From Bdellovibrionales bacterium (GTDB lineage: Bacteria; Bdellovibrionota; Bdellovibrionia; Bdellovibrionales; UBA1609), in the NCBI GenBank assembly GCA_965247685.1, contig OZ252021.1, positions 30,001-62,000 on the forward strand: a stretch of DNA of 32,000 nt. Reading direction: 5' to 3'. Every line of letters begins with the position of its first letter. Position 1 is the first letter of the stretch. Of this stretch, positions 14,232 to 32,000 are shown one piece after another. Made by a program: the position numbers and the translations under genes. The notes under the pieces were generated by a model. That model did no database searches. It saw only the letters and a program-made list of their open reading frames with translations, and had not been told where the DNA came from.

Positions 14232-15218
14232 TTAATCCCAGTAATCGCTCCAATTATTGAAATTTTTTAAATCATCGAATGTTGCAGTTTTTGCAGCTGC
14301 AATACAGAATGTAGATTCAGGTTGATCACGATAACCTTCTTTTAAAAGATAGTAGCCAACCCCCCTTTGCCTTCTTAAAGAAGTGCAAGAGACACTTAAT
14401 TGTTTAAAGTAAATCCAAGAGAGGCAGATTTTATAAGAACGATCTCTGGATTTATTTGTAACACTGGCATTACGACAAATATCTGAAACCATTTCATGAA
14501 AATGCTCTAAAAGAGGACTGTCTTTGTCTCCAATAAGCAACAAAGGAGAATATATAGGGATATCGACCATACCTTTTATAACACGTCTATCATTGTCTGC
14601 TAAACCTAGTCCAGGATCAGCTACAGGATCTTTCTCTTGAGAAAACAAGTTATAAAGAATATCTGTAGATCTTGAAAAGTCCGCAAGAGAAGTTCCTATA
14701 GATGAAGGGTTGCTAAAAGTCCAGATCAAAACCGCTTCAGCATCATTACTATCATATCCGTAAGGATTTCCATATTCATCCGTGGCATCATCATTATCAT
14801 CATCGTCATCTTCATTTGCTTGAGAAGCTAAATAGTCTCCTGTAATCACTCGATTCCAAGACCGCAAACCTACTTCTGCAAAAAGATCAAAATCTCGGCT
14901 GCTGATATCGCTCTCTAATTTTTTTGCTGTTGGATTTTTTAGAATATCAAAAGCATCCTCAATAAGGCCAATCTCCCCTAAAGAGAATTTGTAGCAAGTT
15001 CTTCTTTCATCGGTGTATTCCAGCATTCGATCACAAATATTTTCACAGCGAGAAGAATCCTCGCATACATTTTGACGGGAAGTTCTTCGAGAGCTCCGAT
15101 TCCGTCTTAGATCTTCCACTTCTCCTTGAGATCCTTGAATCGAAGCCAGATAACTATATTCAGCCGGCGTACAAGAGGCGATTCCAATCAAAAAAGCAAA
15201 TGATAATATTATTTTCAT
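14232..15218 (-). CDS. lipoprotein of unknown function (paralog 1), Cys-motif plus acidic tract
   Basis: The ORF track extends to 15317 and overlaps the upstream gene. The ATG at 15218 follows an AGAGGA SD and gives MKIILSFAFLIGIAS/C, a lipobox. The N-terminal half aligns with the adjacent gene through C-x5-C-x3-C-x12-CY and FDIL.NP motifs. An acidic run NEDDDDDNDDATDE is present. Confidence 0.6.
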   Translation of the reverse strand: MKIILSFAFLIGIASCTPAEYSYLASIQGSQGEVEDLRRNRSSRRTSRQNVCEDSSRCENICDRMLEYTDERRTCYKFSLGEIGLIEDAFDILKNPTAKKLESDISSRDFDLFAEVGLRSWNRVITGDYLASQANEDDDDDNDDATDEYGNPYGYDSNDAEAVLIWTFSNPSSIGTSLADFSRSTDILYNLFSQEKDPVADPGLGLADNDRRVIKGMVDIPIYSPLLLIGDKDSPLLEHFHEMVSDICRNASVTNKSRDRSYKICLSWIYFKQLSVSCTSLRRQRGVGYYLLKEGYRDQPESTFCIAAAKTATFDDLKNFNNWSDYWD

Positions 15219-15237
15219 ATCTAAAGTTCCTCTTTTA

Positions 15238-16236
15238 TTACGGACCCGGTGGTGGACTGCAATCAGCTCTTCTTGTGTAAGTGCGCCTACCATCACTAAT
15301 GGATTCTCGATCTTCAATATGTAATATCAAACAATAAAAATCCTCAATACATCCTGAAGAATTTTCACATTCATTATTAATAAATCTATCTATGATACCA
15401 TCACTCAAACTGTCATTATCTTGGGCTTTAGAGTAAGTGTATAAGGTCACACCATCAAAAGAGTTATTAGTGAGTCCTAAAACAATAGGTAAAAGATTAT
15501 CATGACAGTCCCTTACTGAACAGGATACAGGATCCTCACAATTAATTTCCGGCTTTGATAAAGATATAAAAAGAGCATTTGTAGCCGGCTTTACATTAGA
15601 GTCACACAGTTGATTTTTAAATTTTGAAGTGGTGCAATGCTGCTGCCCTAAAAGACAAATCAAATGTCTGAAAATTTCGTCGTCTTTATCTTTAGATTGA
15701 AGAGCTTTAGCAATTTTTTCTTCTTCAGCCATCCATTCCAACACCAACTGAGCCGTCCTCGAATCATAGGAATGAATATCTTCCCAATTATCATCCCTGC
15801 GATCTCCGTCTTCATCAATATGAATGGGATCCACCAGATCTAAAAACCCTCTGTATCCTAAATTTAAAAAATCACTAAAAAATTCATCTTCAATATCATT
15901 CAGTTCAGAAAGCCGTCGAGGGTTGATCAATATATCGAAAGTACCTGCAATTTCGTCCACTCGATTTTCTCTAGCATTGTAGCAGCGATCCAAATCGCTC
16001 GCCTTTAGATAAAGGCTATCGCAAACTTCTTTGCAGTCCTCACTTTCTCGACAATAATCCGAACTATTTCTTAAGGTTCTATCACGAATACTATCTCTCA
16101 GGCGACGGCGACCATCATCGGAATCTATATTTGTGTCTTTGATAGACGATAGATAATCGTATGTCCCTCCTTGCGTGCAGGATAAAAAAAACACAATAAT
16201 AAAAAAATTGATAAAAGATATCTCTAAACTTTTCAC
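15238..16236 (-). CDS. lipoprotein of unknown function (paralog 2)
   Basis: The ORF track start at 16251 is TTG. An in-frame GTG at 16236 lies 9 nt after GGAG and gives MKSLEISFINFFIIVFFLS/C, a lipobox. It shares the C-x5-C-x3-C-x12-CY, FDIL.NP and YDS..A..VL.W motifs with paralog 1. The choice of start codon is uncertain. Confidence 0.55.
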   Translation of the reverse strand: MKSLEISFINFFIIVFFLSCTQGGTYDYLSSIKDTNIDSDDGRRRLRDSIRDRTLRNSSDYCRESEDCKEVCDSLYLKASDLDRCYNARENRVDEIAGTFDILINPRRLSELNDIEDEFFSDFLNLGYRGFLDLVDPIHIDEDGDRRDDNWEDIHSYDSRTAQLVLEWMAEEEKIAKALQSKDKDDEIFRHLICLLGQQHCTTSKFKNQLCDSNVKPATNALFISLSKPEINCEDPVSCSVRDCHDNLLPIVLGLTNNSFDGVTLYTYSKAQDNDSLSDGIIDRFINNECENSSGCIEDFYCLILHIEDRESISDGRRTYTRRADCSPPPGP

Positions 16237-16614
16237 AAAATAACACTCCAATAAATAAACTACCCTATTTTCTTCATCGGATAACGAAAGGGTATGTATA
16301 AGAAGTTACCAGAATAAAAAGAGATAACCAGTCATTGGTCTTGCTTTAACATTCTATAGCTGTGAAATATTTTCATTGCTATTTTGCCAGAGAATAGATT
16401 TTTAAAAAATCTTTTCAAACTGTTTTACGATCTTTAAAAATTTAAAAAAATATGAAAGAAATAAAAAAAACATCACTATAAAAAAATATCCAACATTCTA
16501 AAAAAGATCTGTTGGAGATTAAAATTATTTTGAAATAACGTCATATCATAAAATCTGAAATTCATATAAAAAGTATCTGAATAATCTAAAGAAAAAAACA
16601 CTGGAATGAAGGTC

Positions 16615-19439: not shown

Positions 19440-19494
19440 GAAATTCATATTTTTAATTTTAGTTTGTGTTAGAATGTGTCGACAGGGGTGTGTT

Positions 19495-20610
19495 ATGTTT
19501 AGACTTTACGTAACTTGTTTTCTCATTTTTGTTGGTGTTTTTGCTTCATCTAAGCCTTCAGACACCATTATGCAGAAGATCACTAAAAGTATTCACGAAG
19601 AAGACCTTTCAGCTTTACAAACTCTTTTTTCTCAAACATCTGTTAATGTCAAAGATGAGCAAACATTAAAGACACCGCTCCATTACGCCGTCATTAGTGA
19701 AAAAATTAAGATTGTAGAGTGGCTTTTGAAAAATAAAGCAATTGTGGATGCTCAAACTCGAACTCAAAAAACGCCTCTTCATTTAGCCGCTTTTAAACTC
19801 AATTATGATATTGTAAAATTATTACTCGATTATAAAGCTCAAGTCGATATTGCAGATAATAGGAAGTTTACAGCTCTTCATTATGCTTCACAAAGAAACA
19901 TTCTTAATTCCAATACGAACCCTTTAGAAGTATTAAAAATTGCAAAATTACTCGTTCAAAAGAACAAAAAAATATTAACTAAGAAGAATAGATTAGATGA
20001 AACACCTTTGCACATTGCAAGTTTTAGTGGTTATGACCTCTTAGTCTCATTCTTTTTAAAAACAGACGCTTCTCTTATTAAAGAAAAAAATAAGAATGGC
20101 CACACAGCCCTGCACCAAGCTGTTTTTGGACGGATGCAGTTTCGAAAGATTAGAAATTTGAAGAAAAGTTATCAAAAGATCATCATTGATCTGGCTCAAC
20201 ATAAATCTATTTTAAATATTCGAGATAATGGCGGAAGAACTGCTTTGCACCATGTGGCTGAAAAGGGTTTTCTTAAAATAACTCAGTCTTTACTATCTGC
20301 TAAGGCCAATCCGAATGTGCAGGATAATGATGGATGGACTCCTTTGTTTTTTGCCAGCGCAAACGCTCATGTTCCTTTAATGCAGTTACTCGTTCAAAAT
20401 GGAGCAGATGTGAACATTAAGAATAAAAAAGATATGACGGCTCTTTATTTTGCTGTGGGCTCTGGTGAGAAAAAGGCTGTGGCGTTGTTGCTTCAATCAA
20501 AGTCAACAGTATTTTTAAAAGATGCTACAGGCCGTTCTTTTTTTGACGAAGATGCCAGTAGGAAATTAAAAGGTTTACTCAATCAATTTTACGAAAAAAA
20601 GTCCAAATAA
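19495..20610 (+). CDS. ankyrin-repeat protein with N-terminal signal peptide
   Basis: The ORF track start is 19474. The ATG at 19495 gives MFRLYVTCFLIFVGVFASS, a signal peptide. There are at least 7 ankyrin-type repeats (...TPLHYAV..., TPLHLAA..., TALHYAS..., TPLHIAS..., TALHQAV..., TALHHVA..., WTPLFFAS..., TALYFAV...), each with a G.D.N-type turn. Confidence 0.85.
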   Translation: MFRLYVTCFLIFVGVFASSKPSDTIMQKITKSIHEEDLSALQTLFSQTSVNVKDEQTLKTPLHYAVISEKIKIVEWLLKNKAIVDAQTRTQKTPLHLAAFKLNYDIVKLLLDYKAQVDIADNRKFTALHYASQRNILNSNTNPLEVLKIAKLLVQKNKKILTKKNRLDETPLHIASFSGYDLLVSFFLKTDASLIKEKNKNGHTALHQAVFGRMQFRKIRNLKKSYQKIIIDLAQHKSILNIRDNGGRTALHHVAEKGFLKITQSLLSAKANPNVQDNDGWTPLFFASANAHVPLMQLLVQNGADVNIKNKKDMTALYFAVGSGEKKAVALLLQSKSTVFLKDATGRSFFDEDASRKLKGLLNQFYEKKSK

Positions 20611-20939: not shown

Positions 20940-23900
20940 CTACTGTTGCCTTTTGGTTTCGAAAGCTCTTTGGGCTTCACACCTTGTGTCTCCGTCATTA
21001 GGCGCACATGTTGTACACGTTCCGTTTACTGCCTTTTGATTCCAAGGACATTGACAAGTAGTTCTATTCAGTCTTCTTAGTCTTCCTCCTCTACAATTAT
21101 CTGCGCATTGCGCATGACCACTAGGATACGCTATGCTCTGGTTTGAAGGACATTCACACCTATTCCCGATCCTTTCTTGTCCTCCAGCACATCTAGCTAC
21201 ACAGTTACCATCGATCCTTTCTTGTCCTCCAGTACATCTAGCTACACACCTGTTATTCACTACTATCTGCCCTGAACCACATCTGCAAGTATAAGTACAA
21301 TTCCTGTTTTCAGCTTTCCATGTATCACATTCTTGTTGAAGAGTAGGACTAGCGTAAGGGCACTGAGCCTCTATGTTTGTACTTCTATAACGAACTCCAC
21401 ATACAGAATTGCTTGGTTCATTGCCAATCCGTCTACAGTTGACCCAACAAAACTGTGTATTTCTGGATGTACAAGAACCACAATTAAAGTCTGGATAATC
21501 ATCGTCGGGCTTTCTGCCGAAGATATTAGTACCAGGACATATGGTGCATTGTGATGGCTCTGTAGGAAGACCATCAAATATAAGACTTCCACCAGGAGTA
21601 ATAGTGCCTGGTGTTCGAACAATAGAGGTAGTCACTTCACAATTACTCGAATTACTAATGAAGTTCGTATAATTAACACTGGTACCAGGTACTTCGTCGT
21701 CATCACAAAGATCGTCGTCTCCAATATCTGGCAGATCAACAAAGACATTCTCTCTTAACGAATAAAGACTCGTAGAAATGAAAGAAGCTTTTTCATCCCA
21801 ATCCCATCGAGCATCATTTTCGGTTCTAGTCACTCCAATCTCACCTGTGACATGTAGATTTCCATTTCTGTATTTATACACTAGACTTGCTTTAGGATTG
21901 AGCTGCCCTATACTCCAACAGCGACTGTCTGAGGCACTATCAAAGCTGTACTGATATTTATCTGCTCCTGAGTCTACCGCCTGTCCACTGATAGGATCAT
22001 ACTCTTGGTTAAGTCTAATTGCGTTAACTGCATTAATACATTCTTGTTTAACAGTAGCCGCACCTTTGTTAATTAAAGTTTGAAGTGCAATTTTACGATC
22101 ATTTAAGTTTACTGCATCTTGAGACGCTCGTCTGACACTATCTGTGTGAGTAGAACAATGTTTATTTTCAAAAGCATCATGGGCTTTTAATTCGTTCACC
22201 TTATTAATAAACAGGTTTCTATTGGCTATTGCATCGTTAGTTTTTGTGAGAAGTTGTTGATAGTAATTAAAAGCTCCGCCACAAAGCTCCATATTCTTAT
22301 GGCAAATATTTCTATTTTTTCGAACCGCTTGAGTGATTTTTTTAGAATGTTTTATACCATTCAATATCAAAGCATTGCTATCAGTGGTGCTATTATAAGC
22401 TTTAACAATACACTGTCCTTTTGCACGACGCAGTTTTTCAGCTTTCCAAAGATCACAAAACTTACCTTCATTTTGTACATGATAAGATCCAGAATTATAA
22501 AACTTGAGTATGACATCAATGGAACGCATACCTTTTGCAAAACTACCCAAGTTGTATTCAGTCAACGTTTCTAAACTAGAAGTGTCCGCTTCTCCAACAT
22601 CAAAAGCGATATTATCTTTAAGTTTGTTCAACGTTTCACCACCATCCGTTTTAGAAGCAGAGCAACTGCTAGGCCAATCTTGTTCAGTTCCTCGAAGAAT
22701 TAAACTTTGATGAGTCCACAAATCTGTATTTTCTACGTTAGAAACACAAATTTTAGTCAATTTTTCATGAATGCTGTTATCACTTTTAAAAAGCGCTCTC
22801 ATCTCTTCAGCATCCATTATATGGCCAGCCTTATCTATAACACCGGATGCCGTTCCACCCGTTAAGAAAAGAGCACTAGAACTCACAGCATTCATTTGTT
22901 GATATCTGGATTGATGATTAGCCGCAAAGTTGAAAATAGAATCTGTGGCTCTCATATTTGTACCAAAAATACCCTGCCAATCTGGCACCCAATTCCAACT
23001 TTGATGATATTGCCTAGATGATGTATCGGGATTAGGCTTCAAACCAATCCATGCCGAAGCAGGAGTCTCAAGCAAACTGCCGTCAATTATAATGTGATAA
23101 TCTGAGTTTTGAGATATTGTAAAGTCAGATTGAGACGTATCTGCAAATTTGAAACTCAATTGATTTCTGGAATTATGGAATGGAACACCATCTACAAACT
23201 TAAAAGGGTTGGGGAACGAATATCGAGGCGCATTCGGAGCTACAGTTTGAAGAGCTGCCGCCCAAAGTTCTCTTGAATCTGGAGGAATGAAAAACCAATT
23301 AGATCCTAAGTTTCTACACGCTTGATGTCCAGGAGTCAGACTGGTTCCTTTAGTTTGAGATAACTTAAAAATATCTTTGATTTTGGTTGCACCCACTTTA
23401 CGGCAAAGGTAAGGAAAAGATCGAGATGTACTCGAACCAACTCCTCGAAGCCCTCTATATTGCAGATGATGAGTCAGTAAAAGAGCTTGCATGTTCGCAC
23501 TAGCCCCAGCAGTACTAATACCACTAGTTTCATCATTATTGTTGCCACCGGCATTGCGATCGGCATGAAAGTTCGAATCCGTTTTAATATAAATAGGACG
23601 AGCTGGTCTCATGCGGGATTGTATATCTCTTATTGTAACACCTGAAGGAAGTGATGCTGTAGACAAGTCAGTATATTTAATCCCTTCAAAAGGCTCTCTA
23701 TAGAAGAACGCCCAATCTCCACCTTTCATCATAGACGGCCAACCTTCGTGAAACATTCCAGAAGCATCCCTTTGAATATTCACCCAAACATGATTTTCAC
23801 TGGAAGACTCATCAAAAGAATCACCAAAGTTAGTCGCCATGTTCACACTATTTTTAAACTTGATCACTTCCACATTATTTTCCGTCTCAACAGTCAACCC

Positions 23901-25907
23901 TGCATCTTCAAGAGTTTTTCTTACAGAAGCATCCGTTGCATCAATGCTTTCTGGAGGCAGATTGTAAGCAATAGCTAAACTCGGCAACAACCCGTTTGTC
24001 CATACACCTTCCTGAGAAGGAGATCCTAATTTTTGAACTTCCGATAAAGGAGCTAAACAATTCAGTTGAGCATCCAAGCCAGAAGCTCCACCCGTTACAA
24101 TTTTAGATTTTCCATTCACAAAGCAAAGTGTTTTTTTACTTCCTGCTGTATATTCAAAATCTACACTCCTGTAGTCCGTTCCAACATCACTATTACCACA
24201 AAGAACAGGCTTAAATTCTGTAGGAGACATTCTCTTAACACATCTTCTGCTCTGGTAAATATAATAGCTACCAACCAAGGTAAAACTGTTTGTATTTTGC
24301 TCATAATCTTTATGTATAACACACTCTGGAACACTTCCATCTAAAGGTTCATCTGGAAGAGTCGCCACCTTACCAAAAGTTCCCACACCATAACGATGGC
24401 AGTTCTTCATATGACAAACTGTACATTGCATCTTCACATTATAAGGAGAGCTTCCAAAATTAATATTTTTAGAGCACTTTTTAGATCCTTTACTTGTAAT
24501 ATCATTGTATTCGACACTAATGGATGGAGAATAATAATTAGGCTGTTCACAAATGTTCTTGCATATATTTTGACTGCCATTTTTCACAGAAACATAAGAA
24601 GTCACCTCTGTTCCACCTGCTTGCAAATGCCAAAAATTGTGGTTTTTATCAAAAGTTTTTAGTCCTATTCTATCTCTTCCCACACGGCTACTCCCACTCC
24701 CATCACCATGCAAAGCTGCAACAGTCCAAGGGCCGATTCTAAAATCTAAACTATCGATATTGGTCGATTTCAAAAAGGTGTCAAGGTAAAGACCGTAAGT
24801 CATTCGAATAGAAGAATCAAAAAATTCATCATCATCAAATCGCTTCGAATCATTGGCACAACGGAAAACATTTAAGGAACAGCTCGCCGCCACATTTTGA
24901 ATTGTGTCACTTCCAAGAACCACATTCTTAGGATTTCCTGTGTTTTCTATTTGGCCTGCTTGCAAAATATTCTTACTCACATAATCCACAGATAAAGCAC
25001 TACAAATACCCGGCCCTTTAATATTTGAATGATAACAAATCTTTCCTTCCGAAGTTGAAGAACCTAAAGAACTCGTCGATAAACGAGCCAGCATATAATT
25101 TTGCGTAGATAAACTGCAGGCTCCAGGTCCACCATCACAAATATGACACTCTAAAACTTCTGAAGATAAAACAAGTTTTTCACTTTTAGAAACTGCGTAA
25201 GTGCTTTCTTGGCTGGAATCAGTTGTAATCTTGTTAGGCATAGAAATAACAGACTTCAGTTTATAAACCAAAAAACCCACTGGCACAGTGTCTGAGTTAG
25301 CTTGTTCGATTTCAGTAAAGGCAGGCATCTGTGTTGGAATCATTGTTAAACGAGCATATATATATCCCCCCGCTGATCGAGAAGCCTTCAAACATTTATT
25401 AAAATGATTTTCAGTAAAATCTCCAAAAAATCCATTCGAACCATTGGCACAATCACCTGAGCTTATCTGCCATTCTTTATTGCCAATGACTTTTAAAAAA
25501 TAGTTCCATCTTGTATCAGTAAAACCTAAAGAACTTCCGTCCAGAATTTTGCTTTTCTTTATCTCTATAGGGCAGGTAAACTCACCTTTAATATCATTAT
25601 AATTCAGTGCTGTTCCGACTAGACCGCATATTCCATACTTTTTAAAATCTTGAACCGTTCCCACACTTGAACTATCCACTTCCACTTGTATACCAATGAG
25701 CATCGATCTCATAGTCTCAAGCAGAGATTTGTGCTTGAACAAAACGTCGGATTGTTCACTATATTGAACTTGTGCCTGCTCAAAGTTACCCATATAGGTG
25801 GCAAGACCCACTGTAGATAAACCGAGTAAGGAAAATCCAAGAAGCGATCCCAATAAAGAAAAACCCTTATTCTTACTCAACATCTTAATTATTTTAGATC
25901 TAACCAT
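20940..25907 (-). CDS. giant (1655 aa) exported protein of unknown function: pseudopilin-like N-terminus, large unassigned body, Cys-rich repeat tail
   Basis: Uninterrupted 4.97-kb ORF. AGGAAG SD lies 5-6 nt before the ATG at 25907, which is 15 nt after the upstream gene's stop. The N-terminus is MVRSKIIKMLSKNKG/FSLLGSLLGFSLLGLSTVGLATYM. The last 203 aa contain 25 Cys. I recognise no catalytic motifs. Confidence 0.8.
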   Translation of the reverse strand: MVRSKIIKMLSKNKGFSLLGSLLGFSLLGLSTVGLATYMGNFEQAQVQYSEQSDVLFKHKSLLETMRSMLIGIQVEVDSSSVGTVQDFKKYGICGLVGTALNYNDIKGEFTCPIEIKKSKILDGSSLGFTDTRWNYFLKVIGNKEWQISSGDCANGSNGFFGDFTENHFNKCLKASRSAGGYIYARLTMIPTQMPAFTEIEQANSDTVPVGFLVYKLKSVISMPNKITTDSSQESTYAVSKSEKLVLSSEVLECHICDGGPGACSLSTQNYMLARLSTSSLGSSTSEGKICYHSNIKGPGICSALSVDYVSKNILQAGQIENTGNPKNVVLGSDTIQNVAASCSLNVFRCANDSKRFDDDEFFDSSIRMTYGLYLDTFLKSTNIDSLDFRIGPWTVAALHGDGSGSSRVGRDRIGLKTFDKNHNFWHLQAGGTEVTSYVSVKNGSQNICKNICEQPNYYSPSISVEYNDITSKGSKKCSKNINFGSSPYNVKMQCTVCHMKNCHRYGVGTFGKVATLPDEPLDGSVPECVIHKDYEQNTNSFTLVGSYYIYQSRRCVKRMSPTEFKPVLCGNSDVGTDYRSVDFEYTAGSKKTLCFVNGKSKIVTGGASGLDAQLNCLAPLSEVQKLGSPSQEGVWTNGLLPSLAIAYNLPPESIDATDASVRKTLEDAGLTVETENNVEVIKFKNSVNMATNFGDSFDESSSENHVWVNIQRDASGMFHEGWPSMMKGGDWAFFYREPFEGIKYTDLSTASLPSGVTIRDIQSRMRPARPIYIKTDSNFHADRNAGGNNNDETSGISTAGASANMQALLLTHHLQYRGLRGVGSSTSRSFPYLCRKVGATKIKDIFKLSQTKGTSLTPGHQACRNLGSNWFFIPPDSRELWAAALQTVAPNAPRYSFPNPFKFVDGVPFHNSRNQLSFKFADTSQSDFTISQNSDYHIIIDGSLLETPASAWIGLKPNPDTSSRQYHQSWNWVPDWQGIFGTNMRATDSIFNFAANHQSRYQQMNAVSSSALFLTGGTASGVIDKAGHIMDAEEMRALFKSDNSIHEKLTKICVSNVENTDLWTHQSLILRGTEQDWPSSCSASKTDGGETLNKLKDNIAFDVGEADTSSLETLTEYNLGSFAKGMRSIDVILKFYNSGSYHVQNEGKFCDLWKAEKLRRAKGQCIVKAYNSTTDSNALILNGIKHSKKITQAVRKNRNICHKNMELCGGAFNYYQQLLTKTNDAIANRNLFINKVNELKAHDAFENKHCSTHTDSVRRASQDAVNLNDRKIALQTLINKGAATVKQECINAVNAIRLNQEYDPISGQAVDSGADKYQYSFDSASDSRCWSIGQLNPKASLVYKYRNGNLHVTGEIGVTRTENDARWDWDEKASFISTSLYSLRENVFVDLPDIGDDDLCDDDEVPGTSVNYTNFISNSSNCEVTTSIVRTPGTITPGGSLIFDGLPTEPSQCTICPGTNIFGRKPDDDYPDFNCGSCTSRNTQFCWVNCRRIGNEPSNSVCGVRYRSTNIEAQCPYASPTLQQECDTWKAENRNCTYTCRCGSGQIVVNNRCVARCTGGQERIDGNCVARCAGGQERIGNRCECPSNQSIAYPSGHAQCADNCRGGRLRRLNRTTCQCPWNQKAVNGTCTTCAPNDGDTRCEAQRAFETKRQQ
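21168..21257. repeat. in-frame 45-bp tandem duplication inside the giant gene (encodes NNRCVARCTGGQERI / DGNCVARCAGGQERI)
   Basis: The first 36 nt of units 21168..21212 and 21213..21257 differ at a single position (c/t). The last 9 nt of each unit have diverged. Confidence 0.9.
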
Positions 25908-25922
25908 TGCATCTTCCTATTT

Positions 25923-28040
25923 TTAATGTGGTGGTACAACCACAGTAGTGGTGACAGTTTTAATTGTTTGAGAAAGCACATTCGTTTGACTCTCTATAGT
26001 CACTGGCTGCATTCTATCTTCCAATCTCAGTGGATCGATCCCAGCGTATTCACAATAGGTATCAAAACCTACATATCGAACAGCCTCACCTATTCTTGGA
26101 CCATTTTCTGCAGATGTAATATCCACATATTTTCCATTTTTCAAAGCTTTACAAAAGCATCTATTCTTCTTATCCAAATTACACTTCTTGTTGATAGGAG
26201 GACAGTAAGCTGAATATTGTCTCATGCGGACTTCTTTATTATTGACCTTCTTATGAGCAATACATACATAGTCTGGTCTATCTGCTCTTCCGATCGTGTA
26301 AACAGATTGGATGGAATCCGATCCATGCACATTAAATGTTCTTGGAAAAGCAAGATCCACCACTGGAGGATCACCCACTATTCCCGTATCGCAAGTCCCG
26401 TCTTGTTCTATAGCAGAACCATCCGGACAGCACGCACCACCTACAGGCATAGCATTTCCATCAGGACAACACACTCCAGAAGGCGCAGAACCATCTGTAC
26501 ATGTGACTGCAACCGAACAAATTCCACTTGCGGGTTTAGGTGAGTTGTTTGGACATTTGCATATATTTGTATTGCTGGAATTAGCCTGTGTTTGAGCAAA
26601 CTTGTAAGAACCATTATTACATGCACACATTCCTGAACCATCTTTTGTGGAACCTGTAGGACATTGAGGACAGGAAAATGTGGAATCGGAAACATGAGCC
26701 TGCTTCGTTGGTTCATATTTACATATACATTGATCCACATTAAGTTCTGCATCTGAAGGACACGGAGAACAGTTGATTGAGGAATCTCCAAAAGCTGCAA
26801 CTATGCTTGGGTTATCAATACATTGACATCCTTCAGCGCCTTTATTCCTCGTTCCAGACACAGGACATCCTTTACAACTTAAACTCTTTAACGCAGTCAC
26901 ACTCGTGATAGAAGCAGACGGACGGTTTTGAACACTGGGGTCTGTAGAATTTTCTCTATGAAAAACACAGGCACATTGACTAGAATTGATAGGCGCCACA
27001 TTGAAGAGCACTCGCCAATTTGCATGATCTCTTGTTACAAATCGTTCGTGATTGTCCATCCACCAATTAACATTAGAAGAGTTTGCAGATTCTTTTAAAG
27101 ATGCAGCAACAAAGCTTCTAAGACCATTGTCATCCAAACTCACATCACGATCAGGATAAGGAGTACAGCAACTTTGTCCCTTTAGATTTCCTGCCTGTTT
27201 GCCAGGAAAAGCATCGCAAAGACAACTACGTTCATTGCTATCATAACTGGATCCAAAAGGACACTGAGTACAAGATAAGGAACTTCCTAACGGAGCTTGT
27301 CTGGTTGGATCATTATCACACCTACATACAACAGAACTATCTGGATTTGTATGTCGAGTTGTCTCCGGAGAGCATGCTGTTGTACTACAATTATTAGGTA
27401 AATTCCCTCCTATTGGGAAAGTGATACTCGGATCACTCGTACAACCACAGAATAAATTTTCAATTTGCTCTAGTTGCTGTTGTGAGAATTGGTATGGATT
27501 ACCCCCAAAATTACCACTTTCAGCATCTGTTCGGAGTTCACTTCCTGCTGGACATCTACTACGACAAACCGAAGGCAAAGGTTGATTTGTTGGGAATGTA
27601 ACAGTATTTCTCAAAACACACCTGCAAACTGGCTCAATGTCTGCTCCTTCGAATACAATACTTCCTGCTGGACAAGTTCTTGTAGCAGGATCTGTAGCAG
27701 GATCGAGAGTGGGATCGAGAGTGGGATCGGGACAATTCTGAGGTATATTTTCTGCTCCGTAGAAACCTACATCACCCGGACATAAACATATTTCCTGCCA
27801 TGCATTAACACTTGGACTATTACCAAAACCACTAGTCGTGGCGCGATAGAAGTTTCCTCCCGCACACTTGCCCTGTAGATGCTGATGAGCACCAGCATTA
27901 GAATCAGTATGAGCACTTGTATAAAAACTGCCGAAACAGATTACAGCCAAAATAAACCAATATTTTTTTGTACAAAAAGGTGCAAAAAAATATTTATTAA
28001 AAGTTTTCATCCAATTTATGTTATCCATATTTTCGTTCAT
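25923..28040 (-). CDS. secreted cysteine-rich repeat protein (705 aa), unknown function
   Basis: The ATG at 28040 lies 2 nt after the upstream stop. A hydrophobic signal segment KKYWFILAVICFGSFYTSAHT is present; an alternative start exists at Met11. A hand count gives about 52 Cys. There are 11 CxC motifs and repeated CxxCP.GS / CPAGS modules between about aa 59 and 550. Confidence 0.8.
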   Translation of the reverse strand: MNENMDNINWMKTFNKYFFAPFCTKKYWFILAVICFGSFYTSAHTDSNAGAHQHLQGKCAGGNFYRATTSGFGNSPSVNAWQEICLCPGDVGFYGAENIPQNCPDPTLDPTLDPATDPATRTCPAGSIVFEGADIEPVCRCVLRNTVTFPTNQPLPSVCRSRCPAGSELRTDAESGNFGGNPYQFSQQQLEQIENLFCGCTSDPSITFPIGGNLPNNCSTTACSPETTRHTNPDSSVVCRCDNDPTRQAPLGSSLSCTQCPFGSSYDSNERSCLCDAFPGKQAGNLKGQSCCTPYPDRDVSLDDNGLRSFVAASLKESANSSNVNWWMDNHERFVTRDHANWRVLFNVAPINSSQCACVFHRENSTDPSVQNRPSASITSVTALKSLSCKGCPVSGTRNKGAEGCQCIDNPSIVAAFGDSSINCSPCPSDAELNVDQCICKYEPTKQAHVSDSTFSCPQCPTGSTKDGSGMCACNNGSYKFAQTQANSSNTNICKCPNNSPKPASGICSVAVTCTDGSAPSGVCCPDGNAMPVGGACCPDGSAIEQDGTCDTGIVGDPPVVDLAFPRTFNVHGSDSIQSVYTIGRADRPDYVCIAHKKVNNKEVRMRQYSAYCPPINKKCNLDKKNRCFCKALKNGKYVDITSAENGPRIGEAVRYVGFDTYCEYAGIDPLRLEDRMQPVTIESQTNVLSQTIKTVTTTVVVPPH
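27681..27728. repeat. two adjacent perfect 12-bp tandem duplications (tgtagcaggatc x2, gagagtgggatc x2), in frame, encoding DPTL-DPTL-DPAT-DPAT
   Basis: Read directly from the sequence: 27681..27692 = 27693..27704, and 27705..27716 = 27717..27728. Confidence 0.9.
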
Positions 28041-28042
28041 AC

Positions 28043-29758
28043 TTACCTACTTAATGGAAGAGTGGCTAAACTCCCAGCTCCAAAAACGTTAGAGAGAAAT
28101 CGCGGCGGAGTCGATCCTCCTCCCGGAAGAGGTCTTGTAGATGTCATACAACCTCCAAGAGAAATGGCACTTCCACTGCAACCCGGCCAATTGTTTCGTT
28201 GACACAAAGCTTGCACTGCAGTCAGCTGAGAATTTGCTAAAGCAGGGAGAGTTGCTGGTGCCGGACAAGAAAAAGGCTGCACCGACGTCCCACTGGCTCT
28301 CGCCACAACATGAGGCCCTTGAATCACACCATCACATGTTAATGTTCCACGACATACAGAACCATCTGGGCCCGTAACATCTGTTCCCAGAGTACCTATT
28401 CTTCTCTGCCTGCAAGTACAATTCATCCGCTTCACGTTCACTTCGTAATAGCTTGAATAATAACAAGGTATTAAATCTTGAATAACACGAGAACCTCCAG
28501 GACCAACAGGTCTAGGAGAACTTCCACTTGCAAACTCTCTCGCCCTTACAATATGTTGACCCAAACTAGATTTCGTATCCCTATCAAGATCTTCTCTTTT
28601 AAGAGCAATGTCAAAAAGCACTCCCGGTCCTTTATTTAATACTTTGAGTTCTTTTCGCAAAAGTTGAGTTCCCTTAGGATAATTGCCAAGAACCGCCGCA
28701 TTTTGTATCGTATTGTAGTCACTAAGACCCACACAACGAGGATATTCATTGTCGTAATGTTCGTTATAAGCCGACTCACACTTCATAGCACAAGATTCAG
28801 ACGCTATAGGTCTGATATGAAAGGTGGAAAAAGGACGGCGAACCGCCGCATTCATTACAATCTTCTGCTTCTTCACATCCTTAGATACTTGGTAAGGAAC
28901 CACCACGCTCACGAAGACCATGGAATCATCACTATCTTGCACAGGATAATAATCACAAACAGTATGAGCTCCATCTACTGTATATTGACCATTAGAATCT
29001 TTAATTTTACAAAGAACAGAAGGCATCCCCATATAACCAGCATAGTTAAGTCTCATATCCAAAGGATAATCATCATCTTCTTTTGTGGGAGGGGCGTAAG
29101 GACAAAGTCCGTCTACTTCTAATAGAGTTCTAGTGTCCCGGCAAATCACACCTTTATCCGCAATGGAAAGAGCAGCACGAACACTTGGATCATTCGCATT
29201 ACGAACAGCCCAAGTAATTTCTGCATTTTTAAAAAGTGTATGGTAATCATTTTTAAGGTCGGTATCGAGAGGATTAAAAACTAAATATGCTTTGCCTTCC
29301 ATTTGATTGTTGTAAGGGGAAGGTAAATTGACAGTTTTAAACCAAGAAGGCTTACCTGAAGGAGGTTGCCCTAATAACCCTAAACTATCATAGAAATCAT
29401 GGGCAATTTTATTGACCACTCCATTTGGATTAGAATTTCCGTCCAAATCTTCTCGAGGCAAAGGACCTATTTGATAGCATCCGCGGACCTGCTTTTTCCA
29501 TCCATCATTTTCATTTCCTATTTGAGCATTAGAGCAAATGACCACATTTTTTTGTACCATTAAAGTCGCTAAAGCAATCGATTTTTGGGCTAAGATAAAA
29601 GCCTGTTGTTGATTCAGCCCTTGTGCTGCACCACTGGCAAAGTTTTGAGCCACTTGATGAGTCGCCATAATGGTCGCAGCCACAACACCTGAAGCCATTA
29701 AAGAAAGGACTAAACTTCCTTTTTTTCCAAGCATTTTTTTTGTTCTTTTAAATATCAA
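28043..29758 (-). CDS. exported protein of unknown function (571 aa) with pseudopilin/PilX-like N-terminus; first gene of the operon
   Basis: The ORF track start at 29758 is TTG. An in-frame ATG at 29734 gives MLGKKG/SLVLSLMASGVVAATIMATHQ. About 23 Cys are scattered through the protein. The C-terminal third is rich in Gly, Pro and Cys. I see no recognisable family. The start codon is uncertain because neither candidate has a strong SD. Confidence 0.72.
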   Translation of the reverse strand: MIFKRTKKMLGKKGSLVLSLMASGVVAATIMATHQVAQNFASGAAQGLNQQQAFILAQKSIALATLMVQKNVVICSNAQIGNENDGWKKQVRGCYQIGPLPREDLDGNSNPNGVVNKIAHDFYDSLGLLGQPPSGKPSWFKTVNLPSPYNNQMEGKAYLVFNPLDTDLKNDYHTLFKNAEITWAVRNANDPSVRAALSIADKGVICRDTRTLLEVDGLCPYAPPTKEDDDYPLDMRLNYAGYMGMPSVLCKIKDSNGQYTVDGAHTVCDYYPVQDSDDSMVFVSVVVPYQVSKDVKKQKIVMNAAVRRPFSTFHIRPIASESCAMKCESAYNEHYDNEYPRCVGLSDYNTIQNAAVLGNYPKGTQLLRKELKVLNKGPGVLFDIALKREDLDRDTKSSLGQHIVRAREFASGSSPRPVGPGGSRVIQDLIPCYYSSYYEVNVKRMNCTCRQRRIGTLGTDVTGPDGSVCRGTLTCDGVIQGPHVVARASGTSVQPFSCPAPATLPALANSQLTAVQALCQRNNWPGCSGSAISLGGCMTSTRPLPGGGSTPPRFLSNVFGAGSLATLPLSR

Positions 29759-29880: not shown

Positions 29881-30047
29881 CAATCTATATTTGAAGACAC
29901 GGAGATCTGCACAGCAATACTTTGTCCCACCATTCTCCTGTAAGAGTTTTTGTATGTCAAATTGAGTGCCATTTTTTAAACTGAGGTGTGTCACATCAAT
30001 ACAATAGACTGGGATTCTTAAAAAAGTGTATCAATTCAATACAAAAT

Positions 30048-30956
30048 CTAAAATTTTATACCTTTAGAAAAAGTCCTATAAAAAATCTGTGGAAATTGGG
30101 TTTCCAAAACAAAGTTTCCCTTTTCAGGTCGAATTTGAGCTAAAGCTCCTAAAGGCAGAGGATCATTAATAGCACCATGACCACAAGGTAAATTCACAAA
30201 GACTGGAAACCTTTGAGACTTTGACCAAGGTTGAAGAACCTCTTTCACAATAGTACGATTATGCTGAGTCCACTTGCCAAAAATGACTGCTCGAACCTTT
30301 TGAAACACTTTTGCTTCCTTCATCTGCCATAAAGCACGATGCACCTCATAAGGCTTCGTATTTACATCTTCTAAAAACAGAATTTGATTCTTCCTAGAAA
30401 CAAAAACAGGAGTTTGAATAGAATTTTGAATGAGTGTGAGATTCCCACCCGTCAACAAAGCCTTCACCAATCCTGATTTTTGATTAATGATCTTTAAAGG
30501 GAAAAATTGGGCAGGTTTTTGAAATATATTTTTAAACTTTTTTAAAGAAGATGATGAAAGTGAAGAAAGAGAAGCCAAACAAGGAAAGTGCAAAGTCGGC
30601 CAGCGCAATTGATGGTGAATCCAATCATGGATCACAGTCACATCACTATGGCCAATAAATAATTTTCGAATAGGCGGTTTAGTTTTAAGCTTTTTGAGTC
30701 TTTTTATAATTCTTTGACTTCCATATCCCCCTCTCAAAGCCCAAATAATTGAAGAATCTTTAGACCACAAAGCTTTTTTGAAATTATTATAAGCCTCTTT
30801 TTCATTTTGAGCAAAAAATAAGGAATTTCTTTTCGACCCTGTTAGACGAAACTTCATGTTTTTAAAAATTAATTTTAAAACTAAAAATGCCTCTTGAATT
30901 TCTTTGGCACTGGCGGAAGAAGCTGGAGTCACAACATCCACAATAACGGGCTTCAT
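30048..30956 (-). CDS. ldcA: LD-carboxypeptidase (peptidase S66, LdcA/MccF family)
   Basis: 302 aa. It contains ...ALRGGYGS..., the nucleophile motif IGHSDVTVIH, ...FLEDVNTKPYEVHRALWQM... and ...PCGHG, which together supply the Ser/Glu/His elements of S66. Its ATG overlaps the purF TGA (ATGA at 30953..30956, minus strand). Confidence 0.85.
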   Translation of the reverse strand: MKPVIVDVVTPASSASAKEIQEAFLVLKLIFKNMKFRLTGSKRNSLFFAQNEKEAYNNFKKALWSKDSSIIWALRGGYGSQRIIKRLKKLKTKPPIRKLFIGHSDVTVIHDWIHHQLRWPTLHFPCLASLSSLSSSSLKKFKNIFQKPAQFFPLKIINQKSGLVKALLTGGNLTLIQNSIQTPVFVSRKNQILFLEDVNTKPYEVHRALWQMKEAKVFQKVRAVIFGKWTQHNRTIVKEVLQPWSKSQRFPVFVNLPCGHGAINDPLPLGALAQIRPEKGNFVLETQFPQIFYRTFSKGIKF

Positions 30957-32000
30957 AAAGACTCCACTCGTGTCGGGTAATTATGAGTGAAACAAGCATT
31001 ACAAAATCCATTTTGATTGGAATCCATAGTCGACATCAATTTTTCAACGGATAAAAAGCAAAGAGAGTCTGCTTCAAGATACTCTCTTATCTCTTCTAAA
31101 TTTTTTTGAGCTGCAATCAGCTGCGATTTTTGAGGTGTATCTACTCCATAGTGGCAAGGTCCAATCACAGGAGGAGAAGCGACACGAAAATGAACTTCTT
31201 TAGCCCCCGCCTGCAAAAGTATTTTTACTATCGCTTTAGAAGTCGTTCCCCGCACAATGGAATCATCAATCACAATCACTCGTTTTCCTTTAATGACACT
31301 GGTTTGTGGGTTGAGTTTTATTTTGACCTTAAAGTTTCTTACACTGGAACTTGGGTGAATGAATGTGCGGCCCACATAGTGATTACGAGTAATACCAAGT
31401 TCGAAAGGAATTTTGCTTTCTTCTGAATAGCCCAAGGCGGAAACCACTCCACTGTCCGGAACAGGAACCACTACATCTGCGTCCACAGGGCTTTCTTGTG
31501 CCAAAGCCTTCCCTAGTTTTTTTCTATTGAGATAAACATTGGAGCCAAAAACATAGCTGTCCGGCCTTGCAAAATAAATATGCTCAAAAACACAAGCCTT
31601 TCTTTTTTCTTTTTGATTCAAATAAGTAGAGGATAATTTATTTCCTTGAGAAATAGTAAGAACTTCTCCCTGTTCAATTTCCCGAATGTATTCTGCACTC
31701 AAGAGATCAAATGCACAAGTTTCAGAAGCCACCACATAAGACATTCCATTCTCTGATTTTTTTTTCCCCAACACGAGAGGACGAAAACCTCGAGGATCTC
31801 TGACTGCAATCAAGCTCTCAGGTGTGAGTAATACTAAACTGTAAGCTCCCTCCAATAAAGAAAGAGATTGAATTAAAGCTTCATGAAAAGATAAGGATTT
31901 TTTCATCCGTTGATGAATCAGATGGATTAAACATTCTGTGTCGCTGGAGCCTTGAAAAAAAAATCCATCTTGAATTAATTGTTCTTTAACACTTTTAAAA
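30953..32000 (-). CDS. purF: amidophosphoribosyltransferase, C-terminal about 350 codons (5' end beyond the window)
   Basis: The PRPP-binding motif VIVIDDSIVRGTT is present, as are the C-terminal Fe-S Cys residues ...GFCNACFTHNYP. The frame stays open upstream of the track's Met at 31906 through to 32000 (...FKSVKEQLIQDGFFFQGSSDTECLIHLIHQRM...), so the gene continues past the window edge. Confidence 0.9.
   Translation of the reverse strand, partial: FKSVKEQLIQDGFFFQGSSDTECLIHLIHQRMKKSLSFHEALIQSLSLLEGAYSLVLLTPESLIAVRDPRGFRPLVLGKKKSENGMSYVVASETCAFDLLSAEYIREIEQGEVLTISQGNKLSSTYLNQKEKRKACVFEHIYFARPDSYVFGSNVYLNRKKLGKALAQESPVDADVVVPVPDSGVVSALGYSEESKIPFELGITRNHYVGRTFIHPSSSVRNFKVKIKLNPQTSVIKGKRVIVIDDSIVRGTTSKAIVKILLQAGAKEVHFRVASPPVIGPCHYGVDTPQKSQLIAAQKNLEEIREYLEADSLCFLSVEKLMSTMDSNQNGFCNACFTHNYPTRVESL

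Follow-up and report, generated by a model that had tools for sequence, protein, structure and literature searches.

An unannotated superfamily of giant pilin-like proteins in Bdellovibrionales as candidate type IV filament tip modules

Described filament tips and the Bdellovibrionales locus

Tip complexes of minor pilins that include one very large modular pilin have already been described (PMC8179133, PMC12075869, PMC13533445). The tip subunits PilX and GspK characteristically lack the glutamate at position 5 (Glu5) (PMC7541494), and PilC, PilY1 and MshQ use their final ~10 residues to add a beta-strand onto PilK-type pilins (PMC13533445). Many modular pilins carry modules that are absent from databases (PMC8179133), and candidates for the Kil/Tad Tip occur in predatory lineages, including Bdellovibrio, with variable distal parts suggestive of target specificity (PMC12075869). 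Here, we analyzed a 32,000-nucleotide (nt) stretch of contig OZ252021.1 (positions 30,001 to 62,000; GenBank assembly GCA_965247685.1), hereafter the window, which encodes three consecutive exported proteins, denoted ORF1, ORF2 (the middle gene) and ORF3 (the giant). With moderate confidence, we propose that this locus is a type IV filament tip module, serving priming and adhesion; the filament would be a type IVa pilus (T4aP) or a fibre resembling that of the type II secretion system (T2SS). The module is undescribed as a family but not as a concept, and the superfamily of giant pilin-like putative tip modules to which it belongs is unannotated.

An earlier note, made from the letters of the window alone, had reported three co-directional minus-strand open reading frames (ORFs) of 571, 705 and 1655 amino acids (aa), tightly coupled, exported, disulfide-rich, of no recognisable family and set among housekeeping genes, in what might be a Bdellovibrio-like predator. 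The observation was confirmed: the coordinates were reproduced exactly, the genes are separated by gaps of 2 nt (ORF1/ORF2, reading TAA-GT-ATG) and 15 nt (ORF2/ORF3), with AGGAAG preceding the giant, the N-termini and the Cys counts (18 in ORF1, 3.2%; 52 in ORF2, 7.4%; 60 in ORF3, 3.6%) agree with export and disulfide richness, Pfam, NCBIfam, PDB sequence and Foldseek searches were null, housekeeping genes lie on both flanks, and the organism is labelled Bdellovibrionales. The three genes look like one operon, and we take them to be real genes rather than chance frames because homologues with 29–61% identity sit on independent contigs. The true start of ORF1 is most likely the internal ATG at 29734, giving 563 aa, since the database copy (P0018) has that length. 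Promoter-like sites in the region are not more numerous than in shuffled sequence. The features of the locus are as follows.

28043..29758, minus strand: ORF1, 571 aa with a TTG start; large PilK/GspK-style pilin-like protein without Glu5
25923..28040, minus strand: ORF2, 705 aa, Sec-exported, 52 Cys
20940..25907, minus strand: ORF3, the giant, 1655 aa, pilin-like
25913..25918, minus strand: Shine-Dalgarno sequence AGGAAG of ORF3, 5 nt ahead of the giant's ATG
29932..29960, minus strand: promoter-like TTGACA-17-GAGAAT, within the 289 nt that precede ORF1, a consensus match only

With the tips of T4aP (PilX/PilK with PilC/PilY1) and of the mannose-sensitive haemagglutinin pilus (MSHA; MshP/MshQ), the locus shares a Glu5-less pilin-like gene followed directly by one for a very large exported protein (PMC7541494, PMC13533445), as well as the proposed role in fibre priming and adhesion. 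ORF2 has a Sec-type signal, starts 2 nt after ORF1 and ends in a tail whose character is kept in six homologues, and this tail may correspond to the strand with which PilC/PilY1 complete the PilK sheet. In contrast to those tips, the module carries neither the PilY1 beta-propeller nor a vWA domain, its largest protein is pilin-like rather than Sec-exported, both pilin-like proteins lack Glu5, ORF1 is 2–3 times the size of PilX, and small genes of the PilI/PilJ/FimU type are missing from the window. Synteny with PilI/PilJ-type minor pilins was likewise not found, as the window holds no small Glu5 pilin; in two remote related loci (L011 and L015, see below), the ORF1-like gene has two genes for Glu5 pilin-like proteins behind it, of which one is the giant. 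GspK, of the GspI-J-K tip of the T2SS, resembles the pilin-like proteins in having a class III-type N-terminus without Glu5 and in being larger than ordinary pseudopilins, and the composition of the remote modules (one Glu5-less and two Glu5 pilin-like genes) mirrors that of K plus I/J. The module differs from GspK in its much greater size and in the lack of a T2SSK match, a fold match and gsp neighbours.

The Kil/Tad Tip (KilL-KilM-KilN, TadE-TadF-TadG/CpaL) is likewise encoded by three-gene clusters unlinked from the machinery and is rich in disulfides (PMC12075869, PMC13533445); it also includes one large pilin whose distal domain has no PDB homologue. The match in layout and Cys content is descriptive only. 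Unlike the Kil/Tad Tip, the module has no TadE/Tad-N Pfam match, its remote signals (G↓FTLAE and G↓VSLIE, the arrow following the leader) are of the T4a/T2SS type rather than the Flp type, its proteins are much bigger, with as many as 1684 aa, and one product of the three genes, ORF2, has nothing pilin-like about it. Modular pilins such as PilB and PilC of S. sanguinis and CofB of enterotoxigenic Escherichia coli join an N-terminal pilin module to bulky ligand-binding grafts that are expected to be tip-exposed (PMC8179133); the giant shares this layout and differs in a graft of ~1,350–1,600 residues without an identifiable domain, in the loss of Glu5 and in not passing IPR012902/N_methyl. Membership in each of the compared families fails on sequence models, and the likeness is functional and architectural.

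Prepilin-type signals at the N-termini

A class III signal opens with a short hydrophilic leader whose last residue is Gly or Ala and continues with ~21 mostly hydrophobic residues (PMC8179133). Both ORF1 (MLGKKG↓SLVLSLMASGVVAATIMA) and ORF3 (MLSKNKG↓FSLLGSLLGFSLLGLSTVGLATYMG) have such a leader and hydrophobic stretch, located as follows.

29642..29734, minus strand: class III-like signal of ORF1, leader MLGKKG and hydrophobic tract SLVLSLMASGVVAATIMATHQVAQN
25788..25907, minus strand: class III-like signal of ORF3, leader MVRSKIIKMLSKNKG, then FSLLGSLLGFSLLGLSTVGLATYMG, with Gly at +5

The pattern ([KR]..G plus 20 hydrophobic residues) recurs in 16 of the 17 giants and in 64 of 84 ORF1 relatives, with the consensus starts [KR]-G↓F-S-[LIV]-[LIV]-x-SLLGFSLLGLSTVGLATYMG and [KR]-G↓S-L-V-L-S-L-M-A-S-G-x-V-A-A-T-I, respectively. 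Glutamate at +5 was found in none of the 64 N-terminally complete ORF1 relatives, all of which have the Gly and hydrophobic start; ORF1 relatives have Ser, Ile, Leu or a similar residue at this position, and 17/17 giants have Gly, Ser or Ala. The absence of Glu5 throughout (0/64), a hallmark of PilX and GspK tip subunits (PMC7541494), is why we regard ORF1 as a probable tip subunit.

These segments are among the best-conserved parts of both proteins, with 84% mean identity in ORF1 against 42% over the rest (rank 2 of 538 windows along the protein) and 89% against 34% in the giant (rank 3 of 1630). Because the N-termini are extremely conserved while the Sec signal peptides of the ORF2 homologues, ordinary in type, share no sequence, the N-terminal helices of ORF1 and the giant appear to be functional parts of the mature proteins, beyond signal peptides. 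This bears on the reading of the products as plain Sec-exported surface or outer-membrane adhesins, whose resemblance to pilins would be superficial and whose K-G-hydrophobic N-termini would be signal peptides or anchors. We consider it very unlikely: signal peptides are rarely the best-conserved part of a protein, those of the ORF2 homologues, which are true ones, are not conserved, the canonical signals of remote homologues, G↓FTLAE and G↓ISLVE, line up with the start of the giant, and the module adjoins pilins at three loci (L001, L011 and L015), although a plausible A-x-A-like site in ORF1 (IMA↓THQ), the lack of any pilin hidden Markov model (HMM) or fold match and the absence of pil genes from the window would all suit it.

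A further link to pilins comes from genes beside four distant ORF1 relatives, which encode remote homologues of the giant. Those of L013 (1091 aa; hhalign 99.9%, E 2.9e-36), L011 (1234 aa; 99.8%, E 1.4e-28) and L015 (936 aa; 99.8%, E 2.4e-30, aligned from residue 1) were recognised by profile comparison, and the two of L014 (1085 and 1155 aa) were assigned by N-terminal similarity alone. Only the remote L011 and L015 giants carry a canonical Glu5 prepilin signal, starting NNLG↓ISLVESMIAIGVL (G↓ISLVE) and SKKG↓FTLAETAIGLAIMG (G↓FTLAE), respectively, and the N-terminus of ORF3 aligns with both, position for position; Glu5 is also missing from the L013 and L014 giants. A Glu5 pilin-like gene follows the giant in L011 (LEAG↓ISMMELVV) and in L015 (SKKG↓VSLIELLAV). 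At L001, the locus of a close homologue, a gap of 5 nt separates the giant from a canonical pilin downstream (RRG↓FSIIE), with three further pilins nearby, and at L013 a PilT/PilB-type ATPase is encoded 2 kb from the pair. As canonical signals of remote homologues align to its N-terminus and pilins adjoin the loci, we take the giant to derive from a pilin and its N-terminus to be the positional homologue of a class III signal.

Comparison of ORF1 with the giant gave no detectable homology (hhalign probability 0.6%), which contradicts the proposal of the earlier note that their pseudopilin-like N-termini are homologous. Its hypothesis of a pseudopilin-primed adhesin was partly supported: it gained from the Glu5 signals of the remote giants and from the L001 pilin 5 nt downstream, and lost from the curated pilin models, which are not passed, and from the missing Glu5 in the window. 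An ORF1-type N-terminus identical in kind to PilX_N, GspK or TadG was confirmed by no HMM. In its AlphaFold2 (AF2) model, ORF1 forms a helix to about residue 61 (predicted local distance difference test, pLDDT, <50 on the helix). In the AF2 models of ORF1 and the giant, which are weak, the helix ends ~55 residues past the Gly and is followed by beta structure, a layout that may be that of a pilin.

A conserved pair and an inserted middle gene

Searches of 5.8 billion protein clusters returned 16 homologues of the giant (29–52% identity), forming a 17-member family to which a profile re-search added no new member. ORF1 has 10 close homologues. An initial scan of genome contigs with ORF1 gave no match, and HMMER, run exhaustively with the profile of ORF1, recovered 77 relatives. 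The related loci are listed below with the sizes of the ORF1-like protein, the middle protein and the giant, in aa.

Window: 571 / 705 / 1655
L002: 570 / 1159 / 1516
L003: 634 / 870 / 1684
L005: 619 / 944 / 1588
L006 (= L008): 569 / 1065 / 1597
L009: 615 / 1036 / 1528
L004: 547 / 81+63+266 / 1439; syntenic with the window, middle gene in fragments
L001: 573 / none / 1381; pilin after the giant
L013: 493 / none / 1091
L014: 491 / none / 1085, then 589 / none / 1155; two pairs in tandem
L011: 482 / none / 1234; then a 361-aa pilin-like gene
L015: 390 / none / 936; then a 388-aa pilin-like gene

The order of an ORF1-like gene followed by a giant was found in 11/11 distinct related loci with differing neighbourhoods, over size ranges of 390–634 aa for the ORF1-like proteins and 936–1684 aa for the giants. 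The neighbourhoods vary between loci, and therefore the module travels as one unit. The gene comparisons indicate that the ancient conserved unit is the pair of ORF1 and giant rather than the triad, and that the middle gene is an insertion limited to part of the giant's close clade. The middle gene is present in L002, L003, L005, L006 and L009, absent from L001, L011, L013, L014 and L015, and fragmented in L004.

In L004 (8621–9981), the middle gene is split into pieces of 81, 63 and 266 aa, of which solely the conserved C-terminal domain is intact; the split could reflect pseudogenisation or frameshift errors of long reads. The L004 giant is without the Cys-rich tail. In L014 (10001–20188), the pair is tandemly duplicated, and the nearly identical N-termini of the two giants suggest a recent duplication and diversification of the tip module.

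ORF2 begins with a Sec-like signal (KKYWFILAVICFGSFYTSA↓H), and its counterparts in the five loci with an intact middle gene reach 870–1159 aa. Three regions can be distinguished.

26391..27866, minus strand: variable Cys-rich repeat region (residues ~59–550), with alternating CxC/CxxC pairs, e.g., CPxGS...CxC
25926..26375, minus strand: conserved C-terminal domain (residues 556–705), SVYSIGRADRPDYICW...CPP...CxC...CEYA..DPxR
25926..25964, minus strand: tail at the very C-terminus, IKTVTTTVVVPPH, with many beta-branched residues and PP; candidate donor strand

The C-terminal domain aligns across six loci (BLASTP E=1e-12 with L002 and 7e-18 with L003), and only scattered short matches were found between homologues outside it. 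The character of the tail (...TTTVVVPPH) is kept in all six homologues, and by analogy with the ends of PilC, PilY1 and MshQ, it may act as a donor strand. That the C-terminal domain and tail are conserved while the body varies was counted in favour of the filament-tip reading.

The same protein is central to a reading in which ORF1 and ORF3 cap a short periplasmic pseudopilus of the T2SS type and ORF2 is a Sec-exported substrate pushed out to be secreted or deposited on the surface. Contact with substrates has been suggested for subunits of the GspK type, which lack Glu5 (PMC7541494), the Sec signal peptide of ORF2 is ordinary and its gene lies between the two pilin-like genes, apparently on one transcript with them, and the G↓FTLxE signals of L015 fit the T2SS and T4aP rather than the Flp type. 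We nevertheless give this reading only a small probability, as most of the superfamily has the pair without ORF2, a pseudopilin of 936–1684 aa is without T2SS precedent, gsp genes were seen in no locus, and the conserved C-terminal domain of ORF2 resembles a docking module, not cargo.

The giant itself comprises a conserved body and a variable end, with the following elements.

21708..25787, minus strand: conserved globular core (residues ~41–1400), mixed alpha/beta with immunoglobulin-like (Ig-like) sandwiches, from the conservation profile and AF2
24372..24425, minus strand: invariant Cys motif CTVCHMKNCHRYGVGTFG (C495, C498, K501, C503)
23178..23291, minus strand: most conserved core segment FIPPDSRELWAAALQTVAPNAPRYSFPNPFKFVDGVPF (residues 873–910)
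20943..21707, minus strand: variable Cys-rich C-terminal tail (residues 1401–1655), 27 Cys

The Cys motif has the form C-x2-C-x-M-K-x-C-x-R-[YF]-G-x-[GA]-T-F-G from the window giant through the most remote homologues, which read CTACYMKNC[KS]R[YF]G, and it may be a disulfide knot or a metal site; a conserved haem-binding site, as CTVCH in the window giant might indicate, was rejected because the His varies across the family. Identity reaches 0.65 over residues 851–900, where invariant columns are found, and the AF2 pLDDT peaks at 74–88 around residues 873–910. Residues ~860–960 (23028..23330, minus strand) show what we take to be a resemblance to C-type lectins or DUF1566 (ACRNLG..W.FIPPDSRELWAAAL…AWIGLKP…W.W.PDW), a lead only, for which Pfam and Foldseek gave no support; the remote homologues have WVGLK or WVGWEK. 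Alignment occupancy falls below 0.25 past residue ~1450. Giants encoded with an intact middle gene have 46–60 Cys, versus 34–36 in the two with an absent or degraded one, and with n=7 the link between Cys content and the middle gene is only suggestive.

Other genes recur beside the module. Genes of the DUF8196 family (Hjc/UPF0102-like nuclease) cluster in several copies right beside the triad in three genomes (L002, 15277–15909; L003, 15445–19352; L006, 1–1440 and 14841–19545); they could represent a mobile or selfish element that is repeated here and marks the region as variable. A gene of the di-haem cytochrome c peroxidase/MauG family (PF03150) directly follows the three pilin-like genes in L011 (16414–18216) and L015 (5704–7494), and one lies within 10 kb of the module in L001 (23671–24146). 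For Myxococcus, the title of one paper names a non-canonical cytochrome c acting on PilY1 (PMC8833165), and the PF03150 gene may likewise have a functional link to the module.

The proposed filament tip and its carriers

According to the reading that we favour, ORF1 would be a Glu5-less subunit of the PilK/GspK/PilX type that caps or primes the fibre, and the giant a modular pilin with its hydrophobic alpha-1N helix in the fibre core or a tip bundle, whose disulfide-stabilised body of ~1,350 residues would extend outwards, together with the variable Cys-rich tail, and bind the ligand. The Sec-exported ORF2 would use its C-terminal domain and beta-strand tail to dock on the pilin-like subunits, as PilC, PilY1 and MshQ do on PilK, adding a long Cys-knotted stalk. 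It is predicted that a prepilin peptidase cleaves the pilin-like proteins, that these enter the tip of a fibre, that ORF2 docks there and that the module confers adhesion, and attachment to the surface of a host or prey cell would be the likely use in small-genome, ankyrin-encoding Bdellovibrionales.

Several observations weigh against this proposal. Both ORF1 and ORF3 lack Glu5, and two Glu5-less subunits per module are unusual. A cleavable Sec signal (...TIMA↓THQ) is another possible reading of the N-terminus of ORF1. In the N_methyl model (PF07963; cutoff 21.2 bits), the giant scores 11.4 bits and ORF1 nothing, and PilX_N, T2SSK and TadE gave zero matches in 59 + 17 proteins, the threshold for PilX_N and T2SSK in the 59 superfamily members being E≤1. 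The weak N_methyl match of the giant spans profile positions 2–26 of 27, and pilins of L001, taken as controls, score 19–36 bits; as the Glu5-bearing L011 giant also reaches just 11.4 bits, the model appears insensitive here. No pilus or secretion machinery gene or canonical pilin was found within the 32-kb window, and adjacent pilins occur in just 1/7 close loci. The tip would amount to ~320 kDa, maybe too bulky for a secretin, and the docking of ORF2 on the pilin-like subunits is itself predicted by analogy. Foldseek returned no match to a pilin, GspK, PilY1, propeller, vWA, toxin or TadG structure, and the AF2 models it relied on are weak (pLDDT 52–58 overall and <50 on the N-terminal helices).

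The family and fold searches were otherwise negative. Against Pfam and NCBIfam, ORF1, ORF2 and ORF3 matched no family at E≤0.1, and nothing consistent emerged from 17 giants, 13 ORF1-family and 59 ORF1-superfamily members; signatures of RHS/YD, RTX, HINT, vWA and autotransporters were found in no family member, an outcome on which a toxin identity (RHS, RTX) was rejected. Pfam gave no PilY1 beta-propeller match in ORF2 or ORF3 and no TadE/Tad-N match (PF07811, PF13400) in the 17 giants and 13 + 59 ORF1 relatives. Sequence searches of the PDB with single proteins and profiles yielded no match. Mean pLDDT was 52.5 for ORF1 and 57.7 for residues 9–1200 of the giant, with confident blocks at 70–89, and Foldseek against the PDB gave no match at E≤1e-3 for either model, the best E values (0.11 for ORF1 and 6e-3 for the giant) belonging to generic Ig-like sandwiches only.

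The missing Glu5, absent from the 17 giants, the L013 and L014 giants and all ORF1 relatives, is also what would be expected of a pilin-derived complex that is part of no fibre, in which the N-terminal helix is an uncleaved or non-polymerising anchor in the inner membrane and the proteins form, with ORF2, a periplasm-spanning or envelope scaffold, for example a fixed attachment or junction. The lack of machinery genes and pilins in the window and the very large products are in keeping with such a scaffold, and the conserved N-terminal helices also fit specific packing of transmembrane helices. Yet the remote homologues retain full prepilin signals among pilin-like genes, the L001 pilin lies 5 nt downstream of the giant, and the known Glu5-less proteins PilX and GspK are still processed and located at fibre tips (PMC7541494), so that we judge a scaffold unlikely.

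Beyond the tip of a known filament type, it is conceivable, if doubtful, that the module is an undescribed attachment organelle of genome-reduced, host-associated Bdellovibrionales, in which two Glu5-less giant pilin-derived subunits with new folds would form a self-contained tip or stub. By C-terminal beta-strand addition, this tip would recruit a Cys-knotted, eukaryote-like stalk protein exported by Sec, with which the tail of the giant would have co-evolved.

The window has a GC content of ~36%, and the housekeeping genes that flank the module encode EF-G, dCTP deaminase, UvrB, GltX, CarD, RelA/SpoT, Gmk, an S9 oligopeptidase, a metallophosphatase, an ankyrin protein, LdcA (LD-carboxypeptidase) and PurF. 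The purF-like ORF (30953–32000, minus strand, 317 aa) was rejected as a truncated gene, its frame being open to the window edge. The ankyrin-repeat protein (378 aa; 19474–20610, plus strand), with a signal-like N-terminal segment, adjoins the 3' end of the giant and is syntenic in L004, and further ankyrin proteins lie close to the triad in L002. Two adjacent minus-strand genes (14232–15317 and 15238–16251) encode acidic proteins that look alike, contain Cys, begin with a hydrophobic or lipoprotein-like segment and match no Pfam family, with counterparts of 387 and 328 aa in the syntenic L004. Two further minus-strand ORFs of 309 and 454 aa (434–1363 and 1483–2847) have signal-like N-termini and no Pfam family, and by eye resemble outer-membrane beta-barrels in composition.

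Every named source of a homologue is a metagenome-assembled genome (MAG) of a "Bdellovibrionales bacterium," with contigs of 1.08–2.07 Mb, and one is a complete chromosome of 1.40 Mb; the module-bearing lineage has reduced genomes and also encodes secreted ankyrin proteins. The MAG name RHO3_bin_17 suggests a sponge metagenome. From the small genomes, the secreted ankyrin proteins and the probable sponge-metagenome origin, we infer host association, not classical predation, as the lifestyle of the carriers. The earlier note had envisaged recognition of prey or host in case the organism was a Bdellovibrio-like predator.

The module occupies ~0.7% (8.8 kb) of a genome of ~1.28 Mb, a share that suggests importance for the lifestyle of these uncultured, probably host-associated bacteria and makes the module a candidate device for recognising host or prey. 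If the tip reading is true, the known range of size and composition of type IV filament tips would be extended by a pilin-like subunit of up to 1,684 residues with no PDB-matched folds, paired with a Glu5-less partner across a deep, unannotated superfamily, to which one clade adds a Cys-rich stalk protein. It would then be a test case for how Glu5-less pilins are handled and for the reach of the beta-strand-addition rule beyond PilY1, MshQ and CpaL.

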